44,133 bases of DNA. Source: a virus (taxonomy: Duplodnaviria; Caudoviricetes). The notes beneath the pieces are model-generated. The model worked only from the letters and a program-made list of their open reading frames with translations, ran no database searches and was not told where the DNA came from. Within the stretch, counting starts at the first letter, position 1; every line of letters starts with the position of its first letter. The translations under genes and the position numbers were made by a program. Location of the stretch: positions 1 to 44,133 of IMG/VR virus record IMGVR_UViG_3300011338_000370; one strand, 5' to 3'. Positions 25,201-40,220 of this stretch are shown piece after piece.

Positions 25201-25424
25201 CACAACGCGTCGAGCCTCGGGTCGTCGAACATCGGCAACGCAAAGCCGCGCTCTTGCATGGTCTGCAAGGCTTTGGCGCGAGCCTCGTCTGCCGTCATCC
25301 GTTGGATTGGTTCCTGCCCAACCGTTGGAGACATCGGTGGCAGCACTGGTGGCTGCGGACCGACGACGGGTGCAACGGGTTCTTGCGGATCCTGCGGGAT
25401 GAGTTCGTCCATGTTGGTGTTCAC
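13278..25424 (-). CDS. Giant multidomain ejection/internal virion protein (polyvalent-type), 4048 aa
   Basis: Last of three internal-protein genes after tail tubular B. Has N-terminal Gly/Ala hydrophobic helices, a Pro-rich linker, several enzymatic-looking modules and STFLHESSH (HExxH). Confidence 0.85.
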   Translation of the reverse strand: MNTNMDELIPQDPQEPVAPVVGPQPPVLPPMSPTVGQEPIQRMTADEARAKALQTMQERGFALPMFDDPRLDALWNATSSMEKQYQDAEFRRRPQRDPVVSAAIDAARENKRQETANQARQSWLQSLDTDPEEVARANSIAAALNISTDQVRTDPRVFEKYAQEEMAASQKIYEQAPVLSRFMADIEKAKVMSDVTDKLWWYERWANGWSRSALANQIGELRSEQLAQSWSGVTLDDEREAKIKELQAQMEKMPQTSGMWSGGAEITRQFYDQMFWPAISAAGAFVAGSVFTTPVGGAAAATSVFMAGNALQGFRQIQGNSFQNLLDVGYDPQAAADAARGVALVAALPEALGLGKFVSPVVGRAALKTFGPKWLTRLGGSAYTKKLTTMTATEIAKRAASYATKTAAFETGEEEFEENMQMLAEVVSKAMSRPEYQEAIAQGEEALGSYWERTFQVAAYTMQGMVIPTFGMAAVGSMGDINRARKAVKNGRKIETLNHVSKQIDPLSARDPQLAKEVSQAVADSTEQGEILIEAGALRQHIASMEKTANAEGKGVQPLSAFEAFRQKFPKLAEQLDNADDDRTDIVITIGEYVAGLGKTEFAEILKQDLRIATKDNPNPLSLKEALDAFNAAERMRTKAEEAEAEAETEGGAGGEKKQDPVARVRRAVTEQLRATGRYTSAQVNMQAELWVRAIVFRASRRKMDPWDFFAKEYPRVVTEEQLARQAGTPPVRPQIPGMAPKAGAPRSAVSPTSPAPIAPGAAARGMPLVTMPTPAAPAPTPAPTPAPVDPSILTGATPEQQQESVQKVEEVASNLESTPGQIPAEEIPAGTPAPSAVLPSEQMQQAKAEMAQAKADLAISRTKLTTMHADGKSQTDEFKAEAENYRRLVSRMEKAERAEIDVVTKLAEISDVDMADAVLNEMAQAEQDAALLEKQSKDETLSEQERAAAAQGAAQLRAYLEDAAKWMDAKEVEVIANSESQLEMLLEKRVNLREELNNLLSDKPTTAVKATGKYATDAWSRVIDTLNAWASNPDMIDDSNGISISAAELAAKRVSESLDKGTAQVAAQDLEAVLFASQDETMALEDIEDAKDNVRWDGGSPSEIRAAGAAATALNNQLNAIASAAKNALEKLAGDEGTKLLKEIDKVSQDIRNVEEPLRSLKSLRSRAPLTAEQSAEMSVRRPTGKKVTEDSLMDVLNINFQVAMAHTDTKQKHANLILSYPFVAGALSEAERADPDTVIEKFVNWMADNLKTLYHAMPKELRDRSRQWYDGARKYAVVWSERYGISEMQAAAIIAALSPQKDWFVNVSMAERMLDMWTTLRDQRVTPEMQKQAEFRNGEADTDENAEDISPAERMSPKEKKRIWAQIGNSTLGELMADPMKARAAAMFMRMWDETYNSNKVFRLTPEGGSTGVDWQVKMQWQSYGALSKVISLLRDGSRTNVWQQIGNEHKVRSFYNNIVSPNSVLGHATIDTHAVAAALFLPLSSSSDYVGHAWGGGGASKSAETGMNGLYAIFVEAYRRAGADPDINVLPREMQSITWESVRSLFTPDFKDTVGKVASAEKVIRKARKTFADRPLAVRLIPFANKIAELQAELADIPKQIAKRKVKQKERVEKLDESKIQLAQLKKDLATAQKENAKPKKIESLQKATAKKQEVVANNKADVDVLTKLEAQLEKQPQLIKKAQEVLAAKQRDVAEKNQLTDDQFKELVQEELPAVLEAEKNLAQAQKKYDKNINTDLLVAMEGMWRDSASGKLTPEQVRARIIELAEGQTKDKTTGFRPLFWEGSPYNSDQGPTYVGRSRDLAAEVEQTRKNRGVVSPPQLSVEVAPNPADAQATARWDKLPAGLRSEVSHRVLMQVLPLVLTEVGTLGQSVQTVGGFNDKVNASFRVTLSSPQQTILAGRILGELLNQQSVQVVSRDPMAGTQQANLVQIELPAGFTPGDANSIYALLRDVIRSESRESLIQGFTADGEFMDIVWSADDVARTGVTAEQLATLVGATLPNLTVGKSTVYSKRLEKGTDYGLRGTSSVAAESLPQQRAEYLVREAGAIYERELAAAESALEGNRGGWDPRGDLAPLADSPQRPGVEGPDPGIVAAAELYAARTGLVIRRQSNYVAMSEELSRRLADAYEAMSDDSNVPEVAEAYADLKRQTLAQYQALIDSGYRFWFFDAASDPYASNGFNALRDLRATRTMGVYSTQAGYGNEPITDQQRANNPMLEDTGLRWPSGSLKGEEQPVLLNDVFRAVHDAFGHAMEGSGFRMHGEENAWQSHVRFYTGPARRAITTETRGQNSLLNSGPSGQANRVASVDETKFSVQKTGLLPEWAHTTGVTPDMQSRARDRAADALFPVADTSKVNANEHMVQMRIEDFLGVSNPMDGASGNETRIEELKQLLEAKGSEAAVPTLTLKTSGTESTVVGHTGKEEAVALLGLGYTHIPVVLNADFDWAQQQDKNAEGYVAEWPLVVVGEGANASTRIAFPVQRVNATQDYKAAVEPEPAPAAAPAAEPQQEMAPPTMTRGESLRQLRSVTPARPTPGTDVRGEFFSDQMMILLRQKADMSTFLHESSHMFMVWLMRDAALPDASEADKRDAQALLDWFGIKSIEEWNALGLEGQRKYHERFAYSWEIWFSEGVAPTEELDGVFATFRRFLLRVYDVIRMQLNETYKQEFGEDLPILTGDVQMVMSRMLASDQEIQKTEAARKMQPIYMSEEQALASGMTPEQWSNYLDAKQRARDAAAERLGQRQARIIAMLGRTAMRVLDNLQEKAAEIRAAVETEEIDAVSKLPQYRLLNWIRTGVLLNDQGEDMGETGLEPGESRKLNRGEVMQILAELKIPGLIDEASIERKLGHMLSERGQSPTLVAPMVGWNTGSDMIRAMVDVKPMDEVVQKRTDDRMLAEYSEFYDDQDMQDAVGAALHNKHREEIIAIELEHEMTLLRMEADAASETPEIRADRETNKKLASDLVQKRKELVKRIQAERKRIADAATGPAVQAAESELVAAEQTKDVAKMRAARKKVKDAYKQQTQARNDAAKAVRKQVSEIDQKIRKIKDKASPEVQQLQADRDKLLENDLLRMLDEKRDLDNKIVEANRKASGVRTPIRTIVHAAHKAAEKMLAGRRVSDVSASKHARIAERARADAEDARRKNNIQAAVDAKTSELVHHAMVVLADKLHDTISGTKKLVRRIFAADTKLGERRMIEVVLMVRALASLYGLGPNSDVMTPEAVQAAVAEVRTFNPAMADEVENAVAQAAKIATERSQDAARRGEQGPLWKELTVDQFKDLSDTIETLWKYSLEAKRMEIEGQRMQAQDVANQLAEPLQTQSRKVAQDKWKRATSDTERKSRRLLTTWNKTKIVELWCEMIDGVDENGKPKDGPWTRLFYRPIQKAIDDWRWHSANMKERSNAIIKKFGNIKRWKEPLVAHELGGYEFASKAELLGAVLQSGNQSNLTRLLLGMRRADDRSKSWGSVNEDKSLNTDDWNAFIDRITAGDNPILTKADFAAVQELWDLNAEILPYTQRAWRAVFGIPFKQVNLEGISNRFGEWKGGYWPAKQDATKSPEAAQRDLEATLENEARVMHVQTPRGFGISRVEHEYRPLLLDVRLSGIHLSEALQFAYIQPHIKKVLQVLKQKNLGSALESFDPTILTSMITPYLNRVSQQTQSMGVDATSTGWIARWLRRRTGINQMFSHLANALQQVTGHAVTMTRVPVKYWARAFAMWWSGAAGEMAKNQEALSKFMFERRRNKLMELAGNLDEMLNDPNMFEKFREKVEKQAYWLQSLFQNQVDSIAWTAAFNHRMDQLRADTTMQQHEKVADAVAHADGIVRKTQGSLNPESISAMHNAGEWWKLVFQFQSYFLTLMHGNASLLKAIKRDIGWKSGSIRMLHVYIMGFLLPMVLGDAISKAATGDWEDDEDGDGIDDVWFEVFVNSQLRGAGAMVPVVGPVASTLANAFDDKPYNDRLLNVPALTAIEKSAKGANDLFEIFYEGRDVRGKDAKEWSWLFSMFTGLPTLWLAKPAEQLIDWNAGRSPVNATDAVRAMVFGGSWGGR

Positions 25425-28400
25425 TTGCCGCCCCAGTAGTCGCTGTAGGTGTTGCTCAAGCCTTCGGCCTTGCGTTCGTATGCCTGCGCCTGCTCGATCA
25501 GCAAACGCAGGTTGATCTTCTGGGTGTCAGATAGATGGTCTGTCCCTTGCTCATAAGGGTAAGTCATCTCAATGGTAGACCTTGCCATCTTCGCAGCCTT
25601 GACGAGCGTGTCGTGCTCCACCTTTGCTTGCGGAGCCTTGCGCTCTTTCTCTGGCATGTTCCACCTTCCCTCGTATTTGGACTTGAGCGACTTTGCTTTG
25701 GCTTCCGCTCGCTGCGCGTGCTCAACCAGCCACGCGTGGTGCTGGCTTTCCAGCTGCGTCATGTTCGCCAATCGATCGATGGGGTAGTAGGACAAGGCAA
25801 TGTCTCGCCACACGCGCGCGGACTGAAGCAACTCGTCGTGCATGGTGCGAGCGACTGTTGCCCTGTAGGTTCCGTTGCGTGCGCTAGAACGCAGCATCTG
25901 CGTGCGCATCTGTCGCCACTGCGGGTCGTTCGGGTCTTGCGTCCACGAAGGCGTCTCGACATTTCCGCTAGGCATCTGGCCTTCCGCAGTCGCAGCAAGC
26001 CGCTGCGCAACAAACACCGTTTCGGTGGCATCCAGCACACCCAGCTTGTTGATCATCTGAATGTTGTCGATCGCTGTAGCTTCCAGATTCTCTTGCAGGT
26101 TCTTGCTCTGATTCACAGTTCGAGCAGCGTAAGCAAGCAACTCCGCAGACCTCTGCTCTTTCTGCTTGAGTAGCGCAGCCTGCTGCCGGTCCGACAAGTA
26201 TTGCTCGTCACCAGTCGGTTCCAGAAGTTGCTGCGCCATCATCACCGCTTGCATGGCGCGCTGTTGCATGCCGCTCGCCATTTGGATCGTCGCGTCGTAG
26301 ACCTTGGTTCGCTCGACGTTTGCTCGCTGGATGTCGGTTAGGTGTGCGTCCGATACGTCAGGAGACAACTGCGACATCAAATCCGAGTAGCTCTTTTGCG
26401 CCACCGACAACTGCTTCTGTGCCTCCGCGTAGCCTTCAGTTGGGTTCATCGGATTGACGTCGCGCATGGCATCTCGCTGCGCCGCGATGTCCGTCTCTAG
26501 CCGCTGCTTCGTTTCAAGGAACGGCTGCAACCCAACGTCTTGAATGCCAATAGGTGGCATGTCTCGAATCAACCTCTCGGGCAACGGCATGTTGGCGTCG
26601 TTGCGCCGATACAGTTCTTCAATGCTTTTGGGCCGACCGATGTTCGCCCACATCTGCGCAAGATCTTTGACCGACGTGTAGTCGGAGTAGCCTTGCTCTT
26701 GCAGCAAAGCGGCGATGAGCCGGTTGTCCTTGGGAAGGTCGACTAGCTTGACGTTCTCTCCGTTATCGAGAGCGACTTGCAGATTCGAGACAGCGGTCAA
26801 GCGATCGATGTCTTCCATCTCGAACAGCTTGTCCATGGAGTCAAACGTCACCTGAGCTTCAGCGTCGATGTCGACCAGCTGGAAGTCTTCGATGATGTTC
26901 TGCACCATCTCGTCGCGCTCTTGACGAGTCATCCTAGGCTTGTTGCTTTGCGCTCGCGCCGCGTCGGCTTCGGTGACGCGTTCGTCGATCAGTGCCGACA
27001 ACCTCTGCTGCGACAACAGCAACTGCCCATACTTTTCCTTGGCCTCTCCGTTGCGATCGGAAGCGGTCTTGCCTGTCTCCCACGCTGCTTTGTCGTTTGG
27101 TCGTGCCTTCAGCCACTTCAGCCATGCGTGCTCGTGCTCCGACAACTCCGGCTTGTAGTCGCTCGTTCCGCGAGCTTCCTGCGCCTTGCGGATCTCGCTC
27201 TTCCAATACGCCATCTGCTCTTGGTTGAGCACCTTGTGCCAGTTGACGCCAAACTCAGCAAGATCCTGGTCAGCCAGCTTTCCATCAGACCGCATGCGCT
27301 CCAAGACTGCGACCGCTTGAGGGCTGTAGGCCCACCCGGGTAGCTTGGCTTGTTGCTCCAGCGTCTCTAGCTGCGTGAAGCCGCCATTCGATTCGATGCG
27401 TCCAGCGAGGTCTGGAGCCATCCTGCGGAATGACACGACGTCTGGTTGTGCTCCGGCATCTCGCTGCTGTCGAAACCACATGCGGGCCGAGTCCAAGTCT
27501 GCGGCAAGCTGCTCCGTCTTGATTCCCTTCTCCGCAGTCTGCTGGGCAAGGATGGTCTTGCGGATCTCGTCGACGTCTTCGACGCGCACTTCGTTGGATT
27601 GGACACGTCCTGGCAAACTCGCGATCAGCTGGTCTCCGCTCAAACCCTGGCGACCTTGCCACAGCGACATGCCGATAGCAGTCGCGCGCGCTCCGTCGTC
27701 TGCCGACCGAGCCTGTGTGCGCGTAGCACCATAGGTCCGAGCGTCCAGTTCGCCTTCGTCAAGGAACTTTGCGGCATACCTCTGGGCCTGCGCTGGGTCA
27801 TCACTCTTCAGAATGTTGACCACTGTCGCTTTGTGCATCGCCTCCATGTTCTTGGCGAGCATGCTTTGGAACGCAGGCGAATCCGTCGCGATGCCTTCCA
27901 GCTTGGCAAGCGCAACCGTTTCGTTGACGATCTGCGCGCGCGAATCCCTGTAGAAGTTGGGACCGTAGGTTGGATCGGTTTCGTTTTCCCAGCCTTGCCA
28001 GTTCTGAGAAGCCATCTGTGAGAACCGGTCGAGGCGCGCAGTTGCTTGGAGCTTGGCGTTGGCGCGCATCTCCTTGCCAGCATGCAGTTCCCACTTGCCG
28101 ACGAAGTGGTCGCGCAGCTTGACCAACTCTGGCTGCAACAACTTTTGCTGCATCGGAGACTTCGCTTGCTTGGCGATCTCCTCCAACGACTTGTCAAGCT
28201 GCTTGAGAGCAGGCTCGTAGGCATCGACCGCCACGCTTCCAGCAGTCCACAGGTAGCCGTTGTCCTTGTCGTCGCTCATCCGCTTGGCGACGTTCCATGC
28301 CTGCTCTTCCAGGGCCTTGGCAGCGGACTCGTCTTGGACGTCCTGCAACTCTTGCTGTTGCTGCTGCAACGCCAACTGCTGCTGCTGCTTGATGCGCTCC

Positions 28401-28573
28401 TGTCGCTTCAACTCAGTATCCATCCGCTGGATTCCTGTGCCGAAGTTCTGCAACGCTTCGCCATATTGCTCGATCTGCTGCGGAGCGTAGTTGGGGACTT
28501 GAGAGACAGTAGGTGCCTGGAACAGGTTGGCACCACCGATGTCCTGCGAAGCAAAGTTAGGGACGCGTGGCAT
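25421..28573 (-). CDS. Internal virion/ejection protein, 1050 aa
   Basis: MPRVP start, helical Q/A-rich composition, position equivalent to T7 gp15. Confidence 0.75.
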   Translation of the reverse strand: MPRVPNFASQDIGGANLFQAPTVSQVPNYAPQQIEQYGEALQNFGTGIQRMDTELKRQERIKQQQQLALQQQQQELQDVQDESAAKALEEQAWNVAKRMSDDKDNGYLWTAGSVAVDAYEPALKQLDKSLEEIAKQAKSPMQQKLLQPELVKLRDHFVGKWELHAGKEMRANAKLQATARLDRFSQMASQNWQGWENETDPTYGPNFYRDSRAQIVNETVALAKLEGIATDSPAFQSMLAKNMEAMHKATVVNILKSDDPAQAQRYAAKFLDEGELDARTYGATRTQARSADDGARATAIGMSLWQGRQGLSGDQLIASLPGRVQSNEVRVEDVDEIRKTILAQQTAEKGIKTEQLAADLDSARMWFRQQRDAGAQPDVVSFRRMAPDLAGRIESNGGFTQLETLEQQAKLPGWAYSPQAVAVLERMRSDGKLADQDLAEFGVNWHKVLNQEQMAYWKSEIRKAQEARGTSDYKPELSEHEHAWLKWLKARPNDKAAWETGKTASDRNGEAKEKYGQLLLSQQRLSALIDERVTEADAARAQSNKPRMTRQERDEMVQNIIEDFQLVDIDAEAQVTFDSMDKLFEMEDIDRLTAVSNLQVALDNGENVKLVDLPKDNRLIAALLQEQGYSDYTSVKDLAQMWANIGRPKSIEELYRRNDANMPLPERLIRDMPPIGIQDVGLQPFLETKQRLETDIAAQRDAMRDVNPMNPTEGYAEAQKQLSVAQKSYSDLMSQLSPDVSDAHLTDIQRANVERTKVYDATIQMASGMQQRAMQAVMMAQQLLEPTGDEQYLSDRQQAALLKQKEQRSAELLAYAARTVNQSKNLQENLEATAIDNIQMINKLGVLDATETVFVAQRLAATAEGQMPSGNVETPSWTQDPNDPQWRQMRTQMLRSSARNGTYRATVARTMHDELLQSARVWRDIALSYYPIDRLANMTQLESQHHAWLVEHAQRAEAKAKSLKSKYEGRWNMPEKERKAPQAKVEHDTLVKAAKMARSTIEMTYPYEQGTDHLSDTQKINLRLLIEQAQAYERKAEGLSNTYSDYWGGK

Positions 28574-29202
28574 CAGACAGACCCTCCTGCACGCAGCGAG
28601 CGTCCACTTCGACCCATACCTGGGGTCGCCATGGACGCTTCAGAAGACATCTCGGGCCGTTGCGTATACGCCCAGTTGGCCGCCATCTGGCCTGCGCTTC
28701 CAAGAAGCGACGCCATCAGTGCCTGCCCTGGCATGATCGCTTTGCCAGCCATCCGCAACGCCGAAGCCTGCACACCAGCCATGAGCCCTTGGTTCTGGAT
28801 GTCGACGCGCTGCGTCATCATCGATTCGCGCTGGCGCACAGCCTGCGCGTTCATCGACATAGCCGTCAACTGCTTGTCGTATTCCAGACTAGCCATCACC
28901 TCGGCTGCGCTACCTACGCCACCTTGGAGTCCGCGCGCTGCCATGGACGCCTGAGCTTGCTGTTTGGTTCGGCCCATCTGTGCCGTAGCTTGACCAATCG
29001 CTTTCTGCGCTTGCTGGAACGTCTCGATGGCTTCGCGCGCCACGATCCGTTGGTTCAGCTGCGACATGCGCTGCTGGTATTCCAGCGACGAAGCCTGAGC
29101 CTTCATGGACAGCTTCTGCGATCTTGCACCATAGAAGGCACCAATCGCTTGGTTCACGGCACCAACGCCCTGAATGATCATTGCAGCTGCTTGTGCGCTC
29201 AT
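28573..29202 (-). CDS. Internal virion/ejection protein (gp14-like), 209 aa
   Basis: Ala/Gln/Gly-rich with Q.ASMAARG...G.GSA, directly after tail tubular B. Confidence 0.75.
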   Translation of the reverse strand: MSAQAAAMIIQGVGAVNQAIGAFYGARSQKLSMKAQASSLEYQQRMSQLNQRIVAREAIETFQQAQKAIGQATAQMGRTKQQAQASMAARGLQGGVGSAAEVMASLEYDKQLTAMSMNAQAVRQRESMMTQRVDIQNQGLMAGVQASALRMAGKAIMPGQALMASLLGSAGQMAANWAYTQRPEMSSEASMATPGMGRSGRSLRAGGSV

Positions 29203-29203
29203 C

Positions 29204-32200
29204 TCATCCTCCGATGCTTGTTTCGATAGTCATGCCCAACACCGTCAAAGGTAGGGCGGTTTGCTGCGTGACGTAGATCTGCCCTGTGCGTTGCCACGTT
29301 GGTGACACCAGCATTTGCACCTCTTCGGTGCGCAGGTCCGTCTTGTTGTGTTGGTCGATGACGTGCGACTCGGTATCGCTTGGTCCGATGCGAACGCCAG
29401 CACTCCGGTAGAGCTTGACCCAGGTGTTGCAGACGTTCTTAGTTCTGCCCTGTCCGGCTCCGTCGATCTGCATCATCACCGGCAACGTGACCAGCTTGCT
29501 GGTGTAGCCAAGACCGATGCATCCGCGAACCAACCGCTCGGCCGTGGTGACGACACCGCCAGAAGACGCTGTAGCTCCGGCCTGGACCTTGCCGTCTCCA
29601 AAGACCTGGACAGCCGTGCTCGGCAAATGCGCGACCGTAAACGAGCTTCTGGCCCACGACCAATCGGCGCGTGCAGTAGCCTGCAACGAGGCAGCAAAAG
29701 CGGAGATCAGCGTCCCAGTTACCGTAGTCGTGTTGGTGTAGGTGGTGATTAGCACGCCGTAGTTGGAACCGTTGATCGTGAACCGGATCTCGCTTCCAAC
29801 GTCTCCAGCAACAAAGGTTGCAGCCGATGCTGTGACGGTGACAGTTGCTCCGGCTGCGTAGCCTGATCCGCCCGTCACGGTAACGGTCGTCGCGGTAGTG
29901 TTGCGCCCGTCGAACGCCAAGAACGCATCCAAGAACCGGCAGTCTTCGATCGCCTGGAACTCCAGCGTCGACATTCGCTCTACAAACCTGCGCGTGTTCC
30001 CGTTGATCGTGCGCTTGGTCACAACGTAGACGCGATCTTCTTCGCCTTCTGGGATCGAGCACACAGACTCAAACGTCCCGGTCGTGTCGTGCTGGTGCCA
30101 TGCCCCTACTTGCTCCTCGGGAACGTAGGTCAAGCCAAGCAGCTTGCCAGAGGTGCTGACAAACCACGCAACTGGATAGGGTGCCTTCCCGTAAGATAGG
30201 TCAACAAGGTCGTAGCTATCGAATAGATGCGTTGCGCGCAGGCTCATGTCGCCAGTGCGGAACCCATTCGCGTTGGCGTCGTAGCCTAGTTCGCGCACAT
30301 GCCCGCCACGCTCGGCGCAAAACAGAACAGTCGCGTTGATGATCGCAGGCTGAACGTTGTTGGCACCGACGTAGCTTTGTGGGCGAACACTGATCGACGT
30401 TGGAGGCATCGCGTCAGTGTTGACCGACGTGACGAGCCACTCGCTGCTGTTGGTCAGCATCACAAGATTGCCCATCGGCAACCGGTGACGCACTCGGTTG
30501 CGTTCGCGTGCTGCAACGCGGAACTTGATGCGGTCGGTGTCTTGGCTTGGGAACGTGTAGGCCAGATCAGACTCCGTCGCGCTGCGCGTCATGTAGATCG
30601 TCTGCGGCTCGGAGTTGCTGCCAGAGAAGCAGCGGCGTTGCTCGAAGTAAGCTACTGCACCTGGGTATACGTCGGCAGCTGCAAGATCTCCGGCATCTCG
30701 CAGCGGCGGAGTTTGCCCCATGTCGGGGGCGATGTTGTCGTCCACCAACATGTTTGCCTTGCGATACAAGCAAGGGAGCAAAGTCGTTGGTGGGTTGTTC
30801 ACCGAGTTGACGATCTTCGCACCGCCAACGGTAGCCTTGATGTAGAAGCCGTTCGCATCGAGCCGCTCTACATAATAGATCGCCGTTGCAGTGACCGTTG
30901 TCGGGAACTGCCCTGCTGCCGACAAGCCAGGGACTGGATACACCCTGACCATGTCGTTCGTCTGCAAGCCATGGTTGTTCTTCGCGATCAACAGATCGGT
31001 AACGCCAACAGAAACGTTGGAGAACGAAGCGTTGACTTCTTGAGTCGAGGAATCCTCCACCTGCCCGATGTATCCGAACAGCCCGTTCTGCTTCTTGTAG
31101 ACGTTGTAGCGAAGTGCGCCAGCAACCGACGTCCAACCGATGGCGTTTGATGCGCCAGCGATGACAAGGATGTTGTTGATGGTAACGGTCGTTCCGACTT
31201 CGGACTCCACACCGCTCGCGTCTATCGACGTGATCGCGTATGTGTTTGTGAGCTCGGTAACCTGATCCGAGTATTGCGCCAGTGCTGCCGAAAACGTCTG
31301 CGCTGACGTAGCTACAATCTTTACTCCGGTAGAGTAATATGTCAGAGCAAGATGCAGAGGAAAGCTCGTGTTGATCTCGTGAACTGTATAAAACCCGTCT
31401 GGGACACCGCATGCCGACGTTCCGGTCAAATAAACGGGATCTCCTGGCGAGAAGTTGTGCGCTGTAACGCACTCAAAATATGTGTTGGTGTTTGCAATCT
31501 TGTCAACCTTGACGGCTTGTCCTGGTGTCGATTGCCCTGCGACAACGGATGGGGCTAGGACAGTTGCTGCAAAGCTGACGTCCGCAAGCACATAGCGGTT
31601 CGCTGCGTATCGCCGAAGCTCACGCGCAGGATGGCTCGGATGCACTAGCGTTAGCACATCGTTGCTTTGCGTGTAGTGCAGATCGAACAACTGGTCTGCG
31701 GTATAGGTAGTCGGGATCTCGTATGCATCGGATGCTACGGGAGTCCATCGTGCAGGCTCAGACGCTGGGGCTGTCGACTGTGCTGCATGCTCTTGGATGC
31801 AGTAGTAGTAGACGCCCGACGACACCGCGATGTCTCCCACGCGGTATACGCGCGCCATGCGCATGTTCAGCCACGATGACAACGTGTTGTTGACGTTGAG
31901 CAACAGGTTGCCTGTTGGAGTCAACGACAGGTTGAAGCCCGATGCTGTGCGGTTCCGAACGTAGTAGATCGTGTCGACCTTCAGGTAGTCGTCTGCGCCG
32001 CCAGAGACGTAGCGAACTTTGGGAAGCGTAGTGATCGTGGGCAGCGGATCGCCACCGCCCCAAGTAAACCCGTAGTTCGAGTATGGAAGAACAACCGGCT
32101 CTCCGTCCGTCAGCGTGTTGCCAGACCAGTTGAAGAACAGCGGCTGGTTGATCGTGTTGCCCGTATACCAAAGCGTCGCCGGAACCGACAAGCGGCTTTG

Positions 32201-32509
32201 CCACGTCGTGCTTCCTGGGCTAACTGGTGTCCCGTTGCTGTGGAACCGGACGTAGCCGACACCCATCTCGATGACGAGGCTGTCGTCCACCGATGCCGAA
32301 AACGGGATTAGTCGCGCCACACCGTTGTTCTTGGTGTTGGCGACGTATTGCATGCCTGGACGCCGAGCCACAGGTCCATGCGGTAAAGCGATCATGTTGC
32401 GCAGTTCGGCTGCGCCCGCTTGGTAGCGCGCGTCATCGATGCGCCCGAACATGTCGGGAGCGATCTCTCCACCGTTGAACGATCGGTTGTAGATGCGCGT
32501 GTTGGGCAT
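29204..32509 (-). CDS. Tail tubular protein B / nozzle, 1101 aa, with inserted domains
   Basis: SFNGGEIAP.M.GR.D, N.I..PHG...RRPG, YP.AV.YFEQR, EQV.AWHQH and PLT(V)L motifs. Start re-called to 32509. Confidence 0.9.
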   Translation of the reverse strand: MPNTRIYNRSFNGGEIAPDMFGRIDDARYQAGAAELRNMIALPHGPVARRPGMQYVANTKNNGVARLIPFSASVDDSLVIEMGVGYVRFHSNGTPVSPGSTTWQSRLSVPATLWYTGNTINQPLFFNWSGNTLTDGEPVVLPYSNYGFTWGGGDPLPTITTLPKVRYVSGGADDYLKVDTIYYVRNRTASGFNLSLTPTGNLLLNVNNTLSSWLNMRMARVYRVGDIAVSSGVYYYCIQEHAAQSTAPASEPARWTPVASDAYEIPTTYTADQLFDLHYTQSNDVLTLVHPSHPARELRRYAANRYVLADVSFAATVLAPSVVAGQSTPGQAVKVDKIANTNTYFECVTAHNFSPGDPVYLTGTSACGVPDGFYTVHEINTSFPLHLALTYYSTGVKIVATSAQTFSAALAQYSDQVTELTNTYAITSIDASGVESEVGTTVTINNILVIAGASNAIGWTSVAGALRYNVYKKQNGLFGYIGQVEDSSTQEVNASFSNVSVGVTDLLIAKNNHGLQTNDMVRVYPVPGLSAAGQFPTTVTATAIYYVERLDANGFYIKATVGGAKIVNSVNNPPTTLLPCLYRKANMLVDDNIAPDMGQTPPLRDAGDLAAADVYPGAVAYFEQRRCFSGSNSEPQTIYMTRSATESDLAYTFPSQDTDRIKFRVAARERNRVRHRLPMGNLVMLTNSSEWLVTSVNTDAMPPTSISVRPQSYVGANNVQPAIINATVLFCAERGGHVRELGYDANANGFRTGDMSLRATHLFDSYDLVDLSYGKAPYPVAWFVSTSGKLLGLTYVPEEQVGAWHQHDTTGTFESVCSIPEGEEDRVYVVTKRTINGNTRRFVERMSTLEFQAIEDCRFLDAFLAFDGRNTTATTVTVTGGSGYAAGATVTVTASAATFVAGDVGSEIRFTINGSNYGVLITTYTNTTTVTGTLISAFAASLQATARADWSWARSSFTVAHLPSTAVQVFGDGKVQAGATASSGGVVTTAERLVRGCIGLGYTSKLVTLPVMMQIDGAGQGRTKNVCNTWVKLYRSAGVRIGPSDTESHVIDQHNKTDLRTEEVQMLVSPTWQRTGQIYVTQQTALPLTVLGMTIETSIGG

Positions 32510-32511
32510 GT

Positions 32512-33531
32512 TCAGCGGGCCGTGATCCAAGAAGCCTGATGCTCAGGGTGCACACGTCGCACCGACGAATCCGACGACGTTGCCTTCGCGGCATACATCG
32601 ACGACATCTGGATGCACCGCTTGCTCTCGTTCGCGCCAGCGTCACCCTTGAGGATCGCGCCCGCGAGCATGCTGGCAAGGTGCCATGCCACCGCCATCTG
32701 AAACAGCGGCGGGAACAGGTGCGTCTCGACAGAGTATTCCGTGTAGATCAACACAGCCTCCTCGCAATCGGTGTATAGGCGAGGCACGCCAAGAGAGTCC
32801 AGCTGCACCGAAAAGTCCTGCGATTGCAGGTAGTCGTCCATGCTGTTCGCTGGCAGGACCGCTACAGCCTTGAGGAAGTGGCGCGGGAGTTCGTAGAAAT
32901 ACTCCCACTCCGCGCAGTCGCAGTGCGTCCCCCACTCATGGGTATGCGTGGAATGCTCTTCGATGTGGTCAACGTCAACTAGCGTCAGTTCCGTGCGACG
33001 CGTCGCAAATGCCCAGTTGTGCATCTCCAACGTCGACCGCAACGCCATCGGATAAAACTTGCTGCACAGTTCGGCCTGAACGCTCGCATCGGGCGGGTTG
33101 ATGCTGGTAATCCTGGCTTGGTCGCCGATGAAGCTCAGGGCCATGTTGCAGATGTCGATGTCCGACACCTTGTTCGTCTCGCAGCTGTCGACGAACAGCC
33201 ATCGACCTTCCGCTAGCACAAGGTTTCGACCAATCGTGTCAATGGCATGCAATGTGTAGTAGTAGCGTCCGAGATCGGTTGCCGACTGCACGCTGTCGAG
33301 TTCAAACTCCACGACCCCAGCAGGTCCGTTCGTGACCGTTCCTGTCAGCTGAAACTCCTGCGTTGTGAGATCTGGCGGATTCTCAAGCTGATCGACATCA
33401 AGCGAGAACGTGTAGCCCGTCACATCCAGTGGCTCCTTGTTGTCGCCACGAATGGTAATCGTCCATGGGTTCTCGTCGCCTTGATGGATGAAAATGTCGA
33501 AGTTGGCCGGACAGATGCTCAGGACAGGCAT
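32512..33531 (-). CDS. Tail tubular protein A / adaptor fused to an N-terminal BppU/Ig-like domain
   Basis: From about residue 122: DICNMAL..IG...I.S...A.LC..FY...L..HNW.FA. Residues 1-120 carry an I.QGD...DVTGY...G.V.F...YYY beta-sandwich pattern. Confidence 0.85.
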   Translation of the reverse strand: MPVLSICPANFDIFIHQGDENPWTITIRGDNKEPLDVTGYTFSLDVDQLENPPDLTTQEFQLTGTVTNGPAGVVEFELDSVQSATDLGRYYYTLHAIDTIGRNLVLAEGRWLFVDSCETNKVSDIDICNMALSFIGDQARITSINPPDASVQAELCSKFYPMALRSTLEMHNWAFATRRTELTLVDVDHIEEHSTHTHEWGTHCDCAEWEYFYELPRHFLKAVAVLPANSMDDYLQSQDFSVQLDSLGVPRLYTDCEEAVLIYTEYSVETHLFPPLFQMAVAWHLASMLAGAILKGDAGANESKRCIQMSSMYAAKATSSDSSVRRVHPEHQASWITAR

Positions 33532-33533
33532 GG

Positions 33534-35621
33534 TTAGATCCTCACCCAGATGGCTTCAGAGGGAACGCCAAGATCGTCCAAGACGAACAACATGTAGTAT
33601 CCGTCAGGCAACGCGCTATCGCTTGCTGGCAACTGGAACGTCATCGACGTCGAACTGACCAACGTCTGCGTCACTGGCTTGTAGTAGCGTTGGCAAAAGT
33701 CGATGTGGTGCGTGACCGAGCTCGGAGCCATCAGCACGCAGTGCGCAATGCTGCGGTATTGGGTCAACGCGTCACACGTCAGCGTGTAGGTCGTTGCGCG
33801 CGAGACGACGTAGGTGTCGTCTGCATCCTGCGTCGCGCCTCCACCAGACAGGACCACGTTTTGAGGACGCCGGAACACAACGTGCGGATCGGGGTTTGGA
33901 CGCAGGTAGCGCGGCGACCACATCTCGTAGTCGTAGCCAGGATGATCCGATGCACTCGGGTTGTGAACGTGCGAAGGATGAGCATTAGTGACCGTCTGCG
34001 TTGAGGCATCTCCGCCTCCAACAAAGATCTGCCCGTTCGGCATCAAAACGGCGGTGCTATGGTAGTCGTGAAAAGCCTCTGCCGGAGACCACGACAACAG
34101 TTCCCACGCACTTCCCCATCCAGATCCGTCGTGCCGCAGCAACTCCGTCTTGGTGTGGTATTGGCCGTTGAACGTCGGGGGAACAGCCCCGTTGTCTGTT
34201 TCCTTTTCTGCGCCACCGAACAAATAGAGATCGGCATCGGGCGTGATGACCATATTTGCTTCGGTGCGCGCCAGATTCATCGAAGGCATAGACACCCACT
34301 GCGCAGCAGCTGTGGTTGCACTGATGATCTCGACCGTGCCGGTAGTCGCCGACAAAAGCGGTGTAGCTGTCTCGCCACGAAAGTGGTAACCACCAGCGCG
34401 GATTACCCGATCAGCAACTCCATCGTAGTTTGGAGCGATAACCGACATTGCATAGACACGCTCTAGGTTGAGCAGCCCAGCTTGCGACGTGGCTCCAATA
34501 GTGTTTGTCCACACGCCAGGGTTGGTGCCGTGGTTCGTCAACGTTGCCGACTTCCAGGCCATCCCCGACATGAACATGCCACCGTTCGATAGCAAGTGCA
34601 TGTGTGGGTAGAAGAATAGCCAGTCGTCTAGGTAAGCAGGCACTCCTGCTCCTGGTGTGCCTGGGCCTGCAAACACCTTGGGGATTGTTGGACCACGCAG
34701 GTCAAACGTTAGACCGCTAGTGTTGATCGTTGGCGAAGCGGTAACGGCAACAGCTTCGTAGTTGTTCCATGCAGGGTTGCCCGATGGTTGGTCACTCTGC
34801 ATGTTGTTCTGTCCGCCAAAGATCAACACCCCGCATCGGGCTCCGTTCCATGGTGAGCTTGCGGCAGTAGCAAACTTCTGCGTCAACTTAGGTGTCGGAT
34901 ACCACCGCTTGAAATGCATGTCCTCCGCACGGACCCAGGCACCTACGTCGAAGTAGTGCTTGTGAGACGTCGTGTTCCAAGAATGCGTGTAGTTCGTCCC
35001 CGTGTTGTTGCGGTAGTAGATCGACCCATCAAGATCGGGGTTCCACATCCACAATCCTTGGTAGGCACCAAACAGAAAGTTGTCGCGTTCGTATTCGTTG
35101 CCACCTGCGATAAGAAGATCGCCGTTGTCTGTCCAGCAGTGACCAGCACAGAACAAAGACGGATACCATTCAGTGGCTCCATCGATTCGCACAGGACCGA
35201 TTGGCAACAGGTAGTTTCGGCTGCGGATGGCTGCGTTTGGATCGGTATCGAGGATGACCAACGCTTGCCACGACCACCATGCTTTCCCGTCAACGTCTGG
35301 CGTGCGCGCGATGACCGGCAACGTGTTCCACAGCAACAGCCGACCCTTGTTCCTTCCCTTTGGGATCAGCGAACAGTGAGTCGCCTTGAAACGTGTGGGG
35401 AATCCCCATGTTGCCGTGATGGCATACGCACCTGACCCAATAGTCCCTGTCCAAAACTCGATCCCCGGCCAAGCAACAGTCGGATCGGTTTCTTGCGGAT
35501 CGTTGTTCCAGCCCTCGGAAAAGTAACCAACTCGCGATGGGTTGGCCGACATGTCCAGGCTGTCGTAGTTCGTGAAGAAGTTTCCGTTCCGATCCGGCTG
35601 GATGATGTCGATGTTCGACAT
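33534..35621 (-). CDS. AA5 copper radical oxidase (galactose oxidase/GlxA-like; kelch propeller plus C-terminal Ig/DUF1929-like domain)
   Basis: LFCAGH (C158), RWYPT (Y241), YP.MHLL, YHS.AVL.P.G....GG (Y520, H521), E..SP.YL, VTH...QR (H638) and P.GYYMLFV....VPS. Confidence 0.92.
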   Translation of the reverse strand: MSNIDIIQPDRNGNFFTNYDSLDMSANPSRVGYFSEGWNNDPQETDPTVAWPGIEFWTGTIGSGAYAITATWGFPTRFKATHCSLIPKGRNKGRLLLWNTLPVIARTPDVDGKAWWSWQALVILDTDPNAAIRSRNYLLPIGPVRIDGATEWYPSLFCAGHCWTDNGDLLIAGGNEYERDNFLFGAYQGLWMWNPDLDGSIYYRNNTGTNYTHSWNTTSHKHYFDVGAWVRAEDMHFKRWYPTPKLTQKFATAASSPWNGARCGVLIFGGQNNMQSDQPSGNPAWNNYEAVAVTASPTINTSGLTFDLRGPTIPKVFAGPGTPGAGVPAYLDDWLFFYPHMHLLSNGGMFMSGMAWKSATLTNHGTNPGVWTNTIGATSQAGLLNLERVYAMSVIAPNYDGVADRVIRAGGYHFRGETATPLLSATTGTVEIISATTAAAQWVSMPSMNLARTEANMVITPDADLYLFGGAEKETDNGAVPPTFNGQYHTKTELLRHDGSGWGSAWELLSWSPAEAFHDYHSTAVLMPNGQIFVGGGDASTQTVTNAHPSHVHNPSASDHPGYDYEMWSPRYLRPNPDPHVVFRRPQNVVLSGGGATQDADDTYVVSRATTYTLTCDALTQYRSIAHCVLMAPSSVTHHIDFCQRYYKPVTQTLVSSTSMTFQLPASDSALPDGYYMLFVLDDLGVPSEAIWVRI

Positions 35622-35681
35622 AGGTCGTGCTCGCGCAGGTGCTGGTGGTGCTGCCGCGCGCCGCGAGCGACGCGGCGGCGG

Positions 35682-35876
35682 CTACTGAGGTGCCGGAGCC
35701 GCAGGGCGCGGCTTCGGCTGCTTCTTGGACTCGGCATCAACCGGGGCTTCCGGCTGATGTTGCTCTGCGACGGCTTCGATCTGGATAGGCAACTGCCCTT
35801 CCATCTCGAACACGTCTCCAGGCAGCCGGAGTCCACCGGCTGCCCAGCAAAGCATGCGGGCTCTGACCTTCACCAT
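35682..35876 (-). CDS. Small protein of the capsid module, 64 aa
   Basis: KVRA...R.PGDVFE N-terminus with a Pro/Lys tail. TGATG-coupled to the cement gene. Confidence 0.7.
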   Translation of the reverse strand: MVKVRARMLCWAAGGLRLPGDVFEMEGQLPIQIEAVAEQHQPEAPVDAESKKQPKPRPAAPAPQ

Positions 35877-36343
35877 CAGACGCCAGACGTCGTGAACGTG
35901 AAGCCGCTCGGGTAGAACAGCCTGCCGTCCGCGATGTGCGGGACAAGGTTCATCGTGACTGCCGTCGACGTCAAAGTTGCCCCAGCAACTACGAACTGCA
36001 ATCGCAGATACCGAAGGTCGGAACCCTGGAAGCTGTTGTAGATGGCTGGAGCAATCGGAACCGCGACGGTCGTGCCCAGCGGAGCCAATGCCGCAAACGA
36101 TGCACCAGCAAGATACTGCTCGTTGGCAAGTGCGCCGCTAGAGGTCGTGCTGACCCACAGGTTGACGGCCAGCGTCGCGCTAGCACCAACCATGGCAGCC
36201 GTCAGCTGAAACACAGCGTAAATCGGCTGGCCCTCGCCGATGTTGCGCTTGTCGACAATGTCGATCGCATCCGCGCCGACAGTCGTGCCGACCACAGTGG
36301 AGCCAAGAGTTGCGCTCAGTGAAGCAAAAGCGTCAGTAATCAT
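35876..36343 (-). CDS. Capsid cement/decoration protein (Bbp16-like), 155 aa
   Basis: MI.D start, R.IGEG, RYLRL and Y.SGF motifs. Immediately after the MCP. Confidence 0.85.
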   Translation of the reverse strand: MITDAFASLSATLGSTVVGTTVGADAIDIVDKRNIGEGQPIYAVFQLTAAMVGASATLAVNLWVSTTSSGALANEQYLAGASFAALAPLGTTVAVPIAPAIYNSFQGSDLRYLRLQFVVAGATLTSTAVTMNLVPHIADGRLFYPSGFTFTTSGV

Positions 36344-36357
36344 GTGTGTGCCTCCGA

Positions 36358-37377
36358 TCAGGGGACGAGGGTTTCGTTGTTCGTCAGAGCGTCGCACTTA
36401 CGCAGAGGAACGCCCAGGTAGGAAAGGAACGAGTGAGCCTTGCCGAACTGCGTCAAGCCTTGCTCGATGCTCATAATGCCCAGCGACTTTTCCATCGCGA
36501 GGCGCGACATCGCCGCGTGCACGTTGCGATTCAGGTAGAACGCACAACGACCCATGGTCGAAGTCGGGAGCAGGTAGTAAGCCTGCGCCATCGCGTGCAG
36601 GACATTGGTCAAGCTCGTCGGGTTAGCCGTCCCCGAAAGGCCCGTCAAATCCGCAGTTGGGATGTTGCAGATACGGACGACGTATCGCCAATCCTTGACG
36701 ACGAGACCGCACTTCCACTGGTAGCGCGTGCTCAGGGCCTGCATGCGCAGGTCGCCGTTGTAGACGGTCTGCTCGCCGAGATCCTCGTGCACGAGACCGG
36801 CCTTGCTGCCCTTCGGGAAGATCCCGTAGACAGTTTGGTCGCCCCAGCAAACGAGGTAGACCGAAGTCAGAGCAGAGCCGCTCGACGCAACGCGAAGGAC
36901 GTTTTTGCTGTTGCCAGCACCCGTCGACGCGCTGTAGCGCGCACGCAGACCCAGGAACTTCTTGGGGTCAGTCGCAGGGTCACCATTGAACAAGGTGTCC
37001 GCCATCGTCTGATTCATCGACTCCAAGAACGCGGAGTCTTCGCTCAGGCGGAACTGCGCCGTGTTGCCGTTGAGCATCGCGAGATCCTTGTCGACCTCGC
37101 TACGAGCTTCGATGATCGCACAGCCTTCGTCGACCTGGGCGGTCGTCGACTTGCTGTTCGGGATGCCCGCGTTCAAGGCGCGGAAATAGACGTCCGGCAA
37201 GCCCGTGCGGATCACGACTCGCTCGCCAGTCGGGAGGTTGCCCTCGCGCCAGACGCAGTCCGTCAGGATCTCGTTGGTCTGCGAGAGAAGCTCGCCGATC
37301 ACCGGGACGTTGCCGTCTGGATCGATACGCTTCGTCCAGTCCGTCAAAGTCAGATTGTTAGTGCCTACAACTGCCAT
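36358..37377 (-). CDS. Major capsid protein (BPP-1 Bbp17-like)
   Basis: LTL.DW.KR.DP, ELLSQTNEIL.D, RTGLP, FRLSED..FLE.MNQ, G.FPKGSKAGL and DWRYVVRI.NI motifs. Confidence 0.95.
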   Translation of the reverse strand: MAVVGTNNLTLTDWTKRIDPDGNVPVIGELLSQTNEILTDCVWREGNLPTGERVVIRTGLPDVYFRALNAGIPNSKSTTAQVDEGCAIIEARSEVDKDLAMLNGNTAQFRLSEDSAFLESMNQTMADTLFNGDPATDPKKFLGLRARYSASTGAGNSKNVLRVASSGSALTSVYLVCWGDQTVYGIFPKGSKAGLVHEDLGEQTVYNGDLRMQALSTRYQWKCGLVVKDWRYVVRICNIPTADLTGLSGTANPTSLTNVLHAMAQAYYLLPTSTMGRCAFYLNRNVHAAMSRLAMEKSLGIMSIEQGLTQFGKAHSFLSYLGVPLRKCDALTNNETLVP

Positions 37378-38324: not shown

Positions 38325-40220
38325 TCAGACAGCCCACCAGCGCGCTTCTGCTGGCGTTTTCGGAAGCTCCGAGAACATGTCGAGCATCACGCTCGCCGAG
38401 CGCGTCCAAGGCAAGCAAGCCGTCGAGACGTAGACGTTGTCGTTCCACACCTCGTTGTAGCTTTGCAGCGGCGGCCAATCTGCCAAGGAGAACGCATCTC
38501 CGTTGTTCCATCGGATGGCGTAGGCATGGAACCAGGATTCGCTCGAAGCTCCAGCTGGCTGCGCGATCCGCTGCCACGCGTTGACGTCGATGACCTGAGC
38601 CAGCGACGTAGCGACATCGTGGTATTTGGCGGCCAACCCATCGCTGTTGGCTGCGAACAGCTGCCTCGAAGCAGCCATCACGCCAATCGCCGCGATGGTC
38701 TCTTGCCAAGGCTGCCATCCAACTACGGGCCTACCCTGCGAGTCGACCCATCCGTATTTGGCTTGCTCGTAGCCGCCGAAGATCCGCACCGGCTTGCCCT
38801 GCGGGATGTTTGCCATCGAAGCAAACCGCAGCGCGGTCTCGATGCCGATGACCATCGTCGAGTCGTCAGCAAGGCCCAGCCACATCTGGTTGGCCCGCGT
38901 CAAGGCGAGACGGCCAACCGCTCGCGGCGACTGGTTCAGAGCACGCTTGATGTAGACGTCGGTCTTGTCGAGTTCGACGTGCGCGCGCACCAACTCCTCC
39001 AACGCAGGGTCGGCAGTCAGTGCAATCGTCGCGTGCAGGAAGTTGTCCGACCGGTGCTGGTCGTCGCTCGTGGTCCACAGGACTGTGTTGATCGATGGCA
39101 TCCACGCGATGGCGTTCTGCCCAGGCCAACCAAGGCGATCCTGCAAGCCAAACGACAAGTCTGGACGCTGGTTCAGCGTCTCAGCCTGCGGGTGGTTCAC
39201 AGCCTTCATGGGCGAACTGTCGCGCTCTCGGTTGTTGGTGGGTCTTTGGACGTAGCCCTGGCATTGCCAGAGCGCGTCGTGGATCTCCCACGGCATCTGC
39301 ATCGTGACCGCGAGATCCGATGCTGCTCCGAAATCTGGCTGCTCTCCCGTCGTCCCGCTTTCGCGAGGCTGGATGCGCGGGCGCGCGGATGCGTAGCCGA
39401 TGAACTGCTGCTGCGTGTAGGCAGTGTGCTGCTGCACGCGCAATGCCTGCGTCGGCTTGGTAGGTGCTGGCACTCGGCCAAGAGCCATCCACGCACCGTC
39501 CCAGTTTGAGAACAGGCCAAACATCTGGTAGCCGCTCGCGCGCGCTTCGTTCGGCGCAGCATGGATCGCGCCACGGATCTCGAACGTCGACGCGCGGTGC
39601 CATCTCTGGTTGTCGGTTGTAACGTTGACAACCGATTGCCCTCCGATTGCACCAACCGAATGCCCGTTCCGCAGGGCAAAGTCGACCGAGACGGGCAACC
39701 CGCAAGCCATCGTTAGTGCAGGCAGAAGCACCGACTGCTCTTGCCCGTTGTTCTCCGTGGTCCCGTAGGTTGCGTGCGCCACGAAGTCGACTGATGCAAG
39801 GCCGCTGAAGACCGTGCACCACACGTCAACCGTAACGAGCTTCGCCGGGAACCAGTGGCGCATGTGGAAGGTGGCCGATGCATCGCCGCCCACCATGCTG
39901 ATCAACGCCATCTGCCCAGCGATCCCGCCCATGTAGAACTTGGGAACGACAGAGTCGATGTCGCGAGTCAGCGCAGCATGCCACTGAAACTCTTCTCGCT
40001 TCCGCTCATCGGGCATGAACTCCAGCTTGACCGACTGACGTGCAGGAACAGTCGCGAGCACGCGGATCCCACGCTCGGACGAGTCTACAGCGTATGGGTA
40101 TCGATAGACGCCATCCGTCATCCATCCGTAAGGCTGCGGCATGCGCTGCTTCGGGATGCCGCAGAACACCCAGGACGTAGCTGGGTGAGCGGAGACGTTA
40201 TCGATGGTGACGTGCATCAA
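38325..40220 (-). CDS. 631-aa protein, possible YetA/PL26-like (alpha/alpha)-toroid glycan-active enzyme
   Basis: N-terminal V.N.S.....V..GIP beta domain. Aromatic-rich helical C-terminal half with DDQH...LTAD, PRA.GR and PWQ motifs. The ORF is secure and the function is tentative. Confidence 0.55.
   Translation of the reverse strand: MMHVTIDNVSAHPATSWVFCGIPKQRMPQPYGWMTDGVYRYPYAVDSSERGIRVLATVPARQSVKLEFMPDERKREEFQWHAALTRDIDSVVPKFYMGGIAGQMALISMVGGDASATFHMRHWFPAKLVTVDVWCTVFSGLASVDFVAHATYGTTENNGQEQSVLLPALTMACGLPVSVDFALRNGHSVGAIGGQSVVNVTTDNQRWHRASTFEIRGAIHAAPNEARASGYQMFGLFSNWDGAWMALGRVPAPTKPTQALRVQQHTAYTQQQFIGYASARPRIQPRESGTTGEQPDFGAASDLAVTMQMPWEIHDALWQCQGYVQRPTNNRERDSSPMKAVNHPQAETLNQRPDLSFGLQDRLGWPGQNAIAWMPSINTVLWTTSDDQHRSDNFLHATIALTADPALEELVRAHVELDKTDVYIKRALNQSPRAVGRLALTRANQMWLGLADDSTMVIGIETALRFASMANIPQGKPVRIFGGYEQAKYGWVDSQGRPVVGWQPWQETIAAIGVMAASRQLFAANSDGLAAKYHDVATSLAQVIDVNAWQRIAQPAGASSESWFHAYAIRWNNGDAFSLADWPPLQSYNEVWNDNVYVSTACLPWTRSASVMLDMFSELPKTPAEARWWAV

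Follow-up and report, generated by a model that had tools for sequence, protein, structure and literature searches.

A predicted AA5 copper radical oxidase paired with an Ig-bearing head-tail adaptor in the structural module of a podophage

Introduction

The closest described relatives of the protein considered here are copper radical oxidases of family AA5. Galactose 6-oxidases (AA5_2) have Trp290 stacked on the Cys-Tyr pair, a pocket formed by Phe194, Arg330, Gln406 and Phe464 and, usually, a CBM32 domain, while GlxA-type enzymes are exported and membrane-associated, carry a capping domain and have CslA as a partner. Here we describe a gene for a 695-residue protein of this family in the virion structural module of a podophage, in IMG/VR record IMGVR_UViG_3300011338_000370 (Duplodnaviria; Caudoviricetes), the whole 44,133 bases of which are called the window below. 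We then weigh where this protein may be located and what it may do.

The copper-radical set of galactose oxidase consists of Cys228, Tyr272, Tyr495, His496 and His581, GlxA has a Trp288-Tyr289 arrangement, and the galactose oxidase cofactor self-processes with copper and O2; the accessible part of this AA5 review contains no occurrence of 'virus' (PMC11611005). The virion enzymes covered in the available text of another review are hydrolases and lyases only, deacetylases included, with 'oxidase' occurring 0 times in that text, and the O-antigen deacetylase tailspikes it describes edit glycan without cleavage (PMC5380687). T7 gp11 is a dodecamer, and its homologue in phage KP32 has a reported glycan (depolymerase) activity (PMC5440376). 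An initial reading of the window made from its letters alone (the sequence-only reading) had known of no characterised phage virion enzyme of the AA5 class. Our literature searches likewise found no virion-associated AA5, only catalogue mentions; however, AA5 and galactose-oxidase genes are already present in viral gene catalogues. AA5 is counted among prophage carbohydrate-active enzymes in the available text of one study, whose supplements may list such genes (PMC13507307), and the accessible part of a lake virome study lists one galactose oxidase as an auxiliary gene (PMC9611531).

Results and discussion

The AA5 gene reads on the minus strand, from 35621 to 33534, the plus-strand frame being closed (Table 1). 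C158 (LFCAG), Y241 (RWYP), Y520-H521 (YHS) and H638 (VTH) are located exactly as the sequence-only reading had claimed, and these five residues align on the motifs of GlxA and galactose oxidase, in keeping with the proposed match to Cys228, Tyr272, Tyr495, His496 and His581. A hidden Markov model search, which that reading had put forward as a check, places Pfam PF09118 (DUF1929, the galactose oxidase-like E-set domain) at residues 606-695 (E=8.5e-18, above cut-off). A single-sequence search matched 17 PDB sequences at E~2e-12, all of them galactose oxidases or GlxA, and by profile the GlxA match rises to E=3e-46, the four motifs lining up with those of GlxA. The AlphaFold2 model, built from 71 sequences, has an AA5 fold with a mean predicted local distance difference test score (pLDDT) of 90.6 and a predicted TM score of 0.92. 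Its blocks containing the five copper-radical residues reach pLDDT 91-97 (in a predicted model, with a fold superposition of 2.6-3.4 A), and residues 1-26 are disordered, with pLDDT <50 at 1-14 and 17-26. In Foldseek, AA5 structures fill each of the first 27 rows (E 1e-28 to 5e-20). VIA gave Z 33.5 and a root-mean-square deviation (rmsd) of 2.6-3.4 A over 441-459 residues aligned to 9g43/9g8h and GlxA, with 25 AA5 entries at Z 31-33.5 versus 20.6 for the next fold and with alignments beginning near residue 25-30. Sequence, profile and fold all match galactose oxidases and GlxA, and by its modelled fold and its residues the protein is an AA5 member, which we assign neither as a galactose oxidase nor as a GlxA orthologue. 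It has no N-terminal hydrophobic stretch (the best 12-residue hydropathy in the first 70 residues is 0.6), bearing out the claim that it lacks a signal peptide.

A word-based protein search returned 104 matches, 24 of which are 45-93% identical to the window protein and form a first tier, several lying on contigs of 41-45 kb. In the first-tier alignment (24 rows, being the query and 23 matches, with the partial P0025 excluded) C158, Y241, Y520, H521 and H638 are invariant in 24/24 proteins, as is W240-Y241, the Trp-Tyr feature of GlxA. A profile search across 1.84 billion representatives gave a second tier of longer, signal-less forms of 619-1249 residues; all four motifs are present in 15/15 of these sequences at ~30% identity, with the Trp before the radical Tyr replaced by Tyr in 8/15. 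The HxHNP loop is found in 25/25 first-tier proteins versus 0/80 more distant matches, with H551 and H553 invariant; its PSHxHNP region has pLDDT 58 at residues 551-560 and could possibly be a second metal site. The ratios of non-synonymous to synonymous substitution rates (dN/dS), 0.047 against L003 and 0.106 against L005, show at the codon level that the gene is under purifying selection. The window AA5 had no match in PHROGs or among 50,697 INPHARED phage records, and its best rows in BFVD were generic Kelch proteins (E>=5e-8, TM<=0.32), which leaves room for AA5 members in that database. With all five copper-radical residues conserved, copper binding and oxidase activity are predicted, and we regard a catalytic protein as very likely.

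These residues also bear on a different view, in which the protein is a virion-bound, lectin-like receptor-binding propeller whose copper site would serve binding or stability with negligible turnover, as in the GMC-oxidoreductase fibrils of mimivirus. No tail-fibre or spike PHROG matched any of the 48 window open reading frames (ORFs) scanned, a scan that could miss a divergent fibre. The AA5 protein and the enlarged nozzle are therefore left as receptor-facing candidates, and a binding protein would be needed; moreover, GlxA itself shows little sugar activity (PMC11611005). However, if the protein served for binding alone, loss of the radical set would be expected, whereas the full set, Cys158 included, is kept at ~30% identity, and we consider a mere binding role improbable.

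The sequence-only reading would have been overturned had read mapping revealed a chimeric host insert, but independent contigs span the junctions. One that is 96% identical and comes from another study (run X13) covers 28000-37077 in one piece, and another at ~92% (run X17) covers the adaptor and AA5 genes. No RNA data set is among the sequencing runs listed for this DNA; 12 of the 20 runs listed may be its source, so habitat labels were set aside. The third-position GC content of the AA5 gene (GC3 0.66, at the low end of the 0.66-0.80 of its neighbours) and its bacterial nearest cellular relatives would fit an assembly chimera or a recent, decaying host insert; yet synteny is kept down to 47% identity and beyond, and dN/dS is 0.05-0.11. 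An assembly chimera was rejected because of the spanning contigs, the conserved synteny and these ratios, and either form of the explanation has next to no chance of being right.

The gene had been read as lying between the capsid cement gene and tail tubular A. This order holds, but a 64-residue ORF separates cement from AA5; on the other side, the 2-nt gap to the start of the adaptor (tail tubular A) was found as claimed. A 60-nt GC-rich spacer (35622-35681) lies upstream of the AA5 gene, is kept in L003 and L005 and has no obvious Shine-Dalgarno sequence. The adaptor consists of a phrog_394 core and an N-terminal phrog_1084 immunoglobulin-like (Ig) domain, which in the Atlas falls among viral clusters, including two with the name BppU; among 48 adaptor homologues, 22 have the Ig fusion and 26 match the core only. 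Homologues in viral contigs keep AA5 directly ahead of an Ig-led gene, as emerged when an Ig-domain profile built from AA5-clade adaptors was run over six frames of all loci collected. The Ig domain opens the next gene after a viral-clade AA5, at a gap of <=7 nt, in 13/13 loci where this is visible (L001-L008, L010, L180, L181, L185 and L186). This count leaves aside L009 and L011, where the sequence breaks off within the AA5 gene, and L191 and L192, which are motif-scan matches with cellular-type AA5s outside structural modules. Among all loci collected the profile matched only those 13 contigs and the window, and it was found in 0/91 adaptor loci that lack AA5. The domain is fused to the adaptor in 11/13 loci; L186 ends inside it. 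In L185 (8792-15408), a myophage of 34% GC, a 1208-residue AA5 with an extra N-terminal region comes after the baseplate genes gp25, gp6/J and P2-I and lies 2 nt before an Ig-led 995-residue protein (HHalign probability 98.6 for the Ig assignment). The AA5 donor genomes have a much higher GC content than L185. What marks a virion-enzyme gene, a tail module and an anchoring partner, is thus seen in the cement-adaptor position, in the Ig-led partner and in this baseplate cluster.

In L003 the AA5 protein and the adaptor are each 95% identical to those of the window, whereas cement is at 28% and nozzle at 69%, which argues that the pair is inherited as a unit. The same comparison shows the cement gene swapped between otherwise 95%-identical phages. 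Ig fusion goes together with a His-rich loop in the adaptor, present in 18/19 fused versus 0/7 unfused adaptors (alignment A5), and the His-rich loops of adaptor and viral AA5s suggest copper capture. The second-tier AA5s have His/acid-rich insertions at another site.

Related phages without AA5 indicate what else this site may hold. Most of the 91 AA5-less loci have cement, a small ORF and then a plain adaptor of ~190-240 residues, but in 6/91 the adaptor is N-terminally extended: L071 (722 residues), L089 and L092 (1110), L095 (775), L145 (771) and the edge-truncated L094. PF03629 (SGNH acetylesterase) passes its cut-off in L095, L145 and P0155 and falls short of it in L089. The motifs GQSN and DxxH are shared by L089, L095, L145, L215 (the G074 prophage discussed below) and L220, all of which except L220 also have QGE. 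These SGNH esterase-adaptor fusions in BPP-1-like phages, an integrated prophage among them, are recognised from motifs and profiles and are a finding by themselves; being covalent, they imply that the adaptor N-terminus can bear a large enzyme-like domain on the particle. The adaptor of L071 (4208-6376) has a ~510-residue N-terminal domain with no Pfam match and, by eye, the look of a beta-helix glycanase. A small insert that seemed common to second-tier AA5s, nozzle and adaptor fusions was dismissed, as it is weak outside AA5 (best E 2e-5, 10-sequence set).

The tight pairing of AA5 and adaptor, together with the Cys/His-rich adaptor loops, would also fit an assembly or maturation enzyme that oxidises or cross-links neck, cement or virion glycans of the particle itself, the Ig domain keeping the enzyme near its substrate. 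The presence of up to three cement-like paralogues before AA5 (three in tandem, Bbp16-like by eye, in L006:8248-9977, L007:7995-9769 and L010:553-2293) would also suit such an enzyme. However, 91 related adaptor loci do without AA5, esterase-like domains are the cargo found in its place, and no glycosyltransferase was recognised in the window, all of which makes a maturation role very improbable.

The cellular relatives of the oxidase point to its source. Among 43 GTDB loci encoding AA5 relatives, 33 are labelled Planctomycetota, Planctomycetia or Brocadiaceae, and five such genomes carry several AA5 copies. In a FastTree phylogeny (90 sequences, 508 columns, rooted on distant bacterial AA5s, with FastTree supports only) the first tier and 15/16 second-tier sequences form one clade (0.998), which is sister to L038 and P0172 (0.97) within an enclosing clade (0.982), in which each of the 11 named members carries a Planctomycetota or Brocadiaceae title. 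L038, like most cellular relatives, starts with a signal-peptide-like stretch; in the window protein a ~28-residue arm stands in its place, and other viral forms have, by eye, a similar arm. A single capture from a Planctomycetota host, with the signal peptide swapped for the arm, is the likely origin to which the tree and these N-termini point. Genomic context covered four second-tier loci. One second-tier AA5, P0176, carries an insert that matches a tail-fibre PHROG; P0165, P0169, P0170, P0174 and P0179, which lie on contigs of up to 95 kb, have different modules at the N-terminus that by eye resemble FN3 or tail-fibre domains.

The donor's Planctomycetota order also harbours relatives of this phage. 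A prophage of the same type lies near tmRNA and tRNA genes on a 7.19-Mb contig of G074 and carries an SGNH-adaptor fusion. Portal, capsid or terminase DNA matches were found in 6/301 genomes of the order (G074, G083, G113, G162, G196 and G239); G074 alone is clearly integrated, the other five being short contigs of metagenome-assembled genomes (MAGs) that may be mis-binned. The window capsid protein matches 3/121 genomes at 30-33%. Relatives of a ~630-residue neighbour of the oxidase gene, similar to polysaccharide lyase family PL26, occur in 95/301 genomes of the order.

Taken together, we lean towards an oxidase that is mounted on the virion, with the Ig domain as its dock, and is predicted to oxidise host surface glycans. 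Of the two locations offered by the sequence-only reading, virion-mounted or lysis-released, comparative genomics favours the first and makes the second less favoured, because the Ig domain is co-inherited both fused to the adaptor in podophages and within the baseplate cluster of a myophage, and because esterase-like domains are attached to this adaptor site in related phages. Judged separately, a virion-bound location is likely, and if the protein is both bound and catalytic, action on the host surface is highly probable.

Several points weigh against this interpretation. The 13 pairing loci represent ~5 lineages and are not independent, only L180, L185 and L186 being independent of the construction of the Ig profile, and a single myophage, L185, was seen in context. 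No AA5-adaptor fusion occurs among the proteins examined. The adaptors of L180 and L181 are without the His-rich loop, and His density in the best 20-residue window (2-6 in viral versus 1-8 in cellular AA5s) separates the two groups weakly. BppU-like domains are common in phages, and in lactococcal phages BppU_N is described as anchoring onto the Dit hub and not as a cargo holder (PMC9692632). A GNAT acetyltransferase lies in the same operon, and the PL26-like neighbour starts with a signal-peptide-like stretch in L180, L181 and L186, so that operon position alone is no proof of virion location. Virion presence, copper binding and activity are inferred rather than shown directly; the proposed Planctomycetota host rests on gene origin and related prophages, and the DNA search of the 301 order genomes gave no convincing CRISPR spacer and, beyond the six genomes named above, only short matches at chance level.

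Some of these points would suit an active oxidase that works outside the virion, as a late cytoplasmic or lysis-released auxiliary metabolic enzyme whose H2O2 or aldehydes weaken the envelope or matrix at lysis. The missing signal peptide, the non-structural genes of the operon (GNAT, and the PL26-like gene with its signal-peptide-like start in relatives) and the failure to recognise an endolysin among the 48 window ORFs scanned all fit, as does the cataloguing of AA5 as an auxiliary gene in prophages (PMC13507307). Yet such an enzyme would leave unexplained the pairing with an Ig domain in both the myophage baseplate cluster and the podophage adaptor, the position at the relatives' adaptor-fused esterase slot and the tail-fibre-like insert of P0176, and the cytoplasm is copper-poor and reducing; we consider it unlikely.

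If the virion-mounted oxidase is indeed the right interpretation, it may work as follows. The apo-protein would be made late, in the cytoplasm, and would bind the Ig domain of the adaptor ring, probably via its N-terminal arm, giving up to 12 copies per particle if the ring is dodecameric like T7 gp11. Copper loading and self-formation of the Cys-Tyr cofactor would take place upon exposure to O2 and copper, probably after lysis, possibly with the help of the His-rich loops. During adsorption the enzyme would turn primary alcohols of glycans on the host surface into aldehydes, with release of H2O2, and would thereby take the role of the adaptor-fused esterase-like domains, which would be to bind glycan, alter it irreversibly and release it, such that the particle moves through the surface layer with the glycan backbone uncut. 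In other phages the corresponding role belongs to deacetylase tailspikes (PMC5380687). Galactose is not indicated as the substrate, since the Trp-Tyr motif is GlxA-like. A more far-reaching version is speculative, and we offer it as a possibility only: Planctomycetota phages of two morphotypes would share a portable module of AA5 and Ig socket, fused to whichever virion protein is available, as a copper-radical redox warhead armed after lysis through copper scavenging by the His-rich loops, with sugar oxidation letting the virion ratchet through or weaken the glycan coat and possibly priming the PL26-like lyase.

The window has a completeness rating of 100%, and its first 100 bases are repeated at 43944. 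By Pfam and PHROG scans its minus strand carries a BPP-1/T7-like podophage module with terminase, GNAT, portal, Bbp19, scaffold, major capsid GP7, Bbp16 cement, adaptor, nozzle, gp14-like and two large internal proteins. The PL26-like protein found among them matches 5xq3 (PL26) better than any other of 48,161 chains (Z 11.6, rmsd 4.5 A, 476 residues aligned) and has Atlas leads of 0.88-0.93 to PcRGLX clusters, weak GH63/GH94 Foldseek rows, 92 homologues and no Pfam match; the window copy is without the signal-peptide-like start. It is a candidate second host-derived, glycan-enzyme-like gene beside AA5, as judged from the structural matches. In G074 this slot is taken by a PKD-domain protein, and in G083 by a LamG protein. 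Elsewhere in the window a 4048-residue polyvalent internal protein (13278-25424, minus strand) has LPD22 and DUF7178 domains, the region after its gene (12481-13662, minus strand) has a lipoprotein-like ORF and a weak Rz-like spanin match, and a tRNA-Val(CAC) gene lies at 7733-7807 on the minus strand.

Table 1. Features of the oxidase locus and of the related adaptor fusions; positions are those of the window unless a locus is named.
Feature	Position	Strand	Remarks
AA5 copper radical oxidase gene (by predicted fold and residues)	33534..35621	-	695 aa, seven-bladed Kelch propeller and C-terminal E-set, without signal peptide
AA5 N-terminal arm, residues ~1-28	35538..35621	-	outside the AA5 fold, low pLDDT; candidate docking strand
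Cys158 (galactose oxidase Cys228 equivalent)	35148..35150	-	
Trp240-Tyr241 (GlxA Trp288-Tyr289 arrangement; Tyr = galactose oxidase Tyr272)	34899..34904	-	
Tyr520-His521 (galactose oxidase Tyr495-His496)	34059..34064	-	
PSHxHNP loop, residues 549-555, with H551 and H553	33957..33977	-	clade-specific
His638 (galactose oxidase His581), E-set domain	33708..33710	-	
Head-tail adaptor (T7 gp11 / tail tubular A-like, phrog_394) with N-terminal Ig fusion	32512..33531	-	339 aa
BppU_N-like Ig domain, adaptor residues 1-116 (phrog_1084)	33184..33531	-	predicted AA5 docking site
Adaptor His-rich loop, residues 189-206, ending Cys-Asp-Cys	32914..32967	-	putative copper store
64-aa ORF between the cement and AA5 genes	35682..35876	-	
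Bbp16-like capsid cement protein	35876..36397	-	PF21190
Nozzle (tail tubular B-like), inserted domains	29204..32530	-	weak CBM5/12 match, below cut-off
~630-aa PL26 / PcRGLX-like protein (beta-sandwich and (alpha/alpha)-barrel)	38325..40220	-	between portal and Bbp19
SGNH esterase-like adaptor fusions	L089:2375-5707; L095:2853-5180; L145:8384-10699; L215:3290-6556 (-); L220:9270-12551 (-); P0155		

Comparison with known systems

If the proposed function is true, a virion oxidase would bring a third kind of chemistry, redox, into phage entry beside hydrolysis and beta-elimination, and infection would depend on a supply of O2 and copper. It would also open a way to study the surface glycans of a Planctomycetota order represented here by MAGs. 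Both the AA5-Ig pair and the esterase fusions found at that end of the adaptor suggest that the necks of BPP-1-like phages have a modular site for enzyme display. For biocatalysis, the viral clade is a source of at least 25 new AA5 sequences that lack a signal peptide and have unusual loops.

The protein shares the propeller and E-set fold of GlxA (4unm), Fusarium galactose oxidase (1gof) and Pseudarthrobacter galactose oxidase (9g43) at Z 32-33.5, and it has in common with them the Cys-Tyr pair, the axial Tyr and the two His, with a Trp before the radical Tyr as in GlxA. It differs from them in its identity of 21-24%, the absence of signal peptide and CBM32, its ~28-residue arm and long surface insertions including PSHxHNP, and in being viral and paired with an Ig domain. 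Compared with the galactose 6-oxidases of AA5_2, the model aligns from about galactose oxidase residue 153, leaving out the CBM32 region, and the radical Tyr lies in RWYP, as in GlxA. Yet the export and CslA-linked features of GlxA-type enzymes are absent too, as the phage protein has neither a signal nor a transmembrane stretch and its neighbours are virion genes. The nearest cellular relatives, the secreted multi-copy AA5s of Planctomycetota MAGs (such as L013, L017 and L038), are 30-36% identical and keep all motifs; themselves uncharacterised, they mostly start with a signal-peptide-like stretch and all lack the HxHNP loop and the viral arm.

Among phage enzymes, the likeness to depolymerases and deacetylase tailspikes lies in a tail-region enzyme that acts on host surface polysaccharide, as predicted for AA5, and in related phages the adaptor site in question carries SGNH-like domains. 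In contrast to the depolymerases, the chemistry would be a redox one that needs copper and O2, performed by a separate subunit predicted to dock at the neck and not by a trimeric spike. Tail tubular protein A of KP32 holds the same structural position as the window adaptor (T7 gp11-type) and has been linked to glycan activity; there, however, the activity is ascribed to the adaptor itself, whereas here a separate 695-residue predicted oxidase would sit on an added Ig domain.

The remaining parallels come from viruses of eukaryotes. Entomopoxvirus fusolin is an AA10 copper monooxygenase, and mimivirus fibrils contain GMC-oxidoreductase proteins. Both are viral proteins of copper or redox folds, borne on particles or spindles and tied to host glycan barriers, although they differ from the phage protein in belonging to eukaryotic viruses and in their unrelated folds and chemistry. 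Because of these precedents the phage AA5 is not wholly new in kind.

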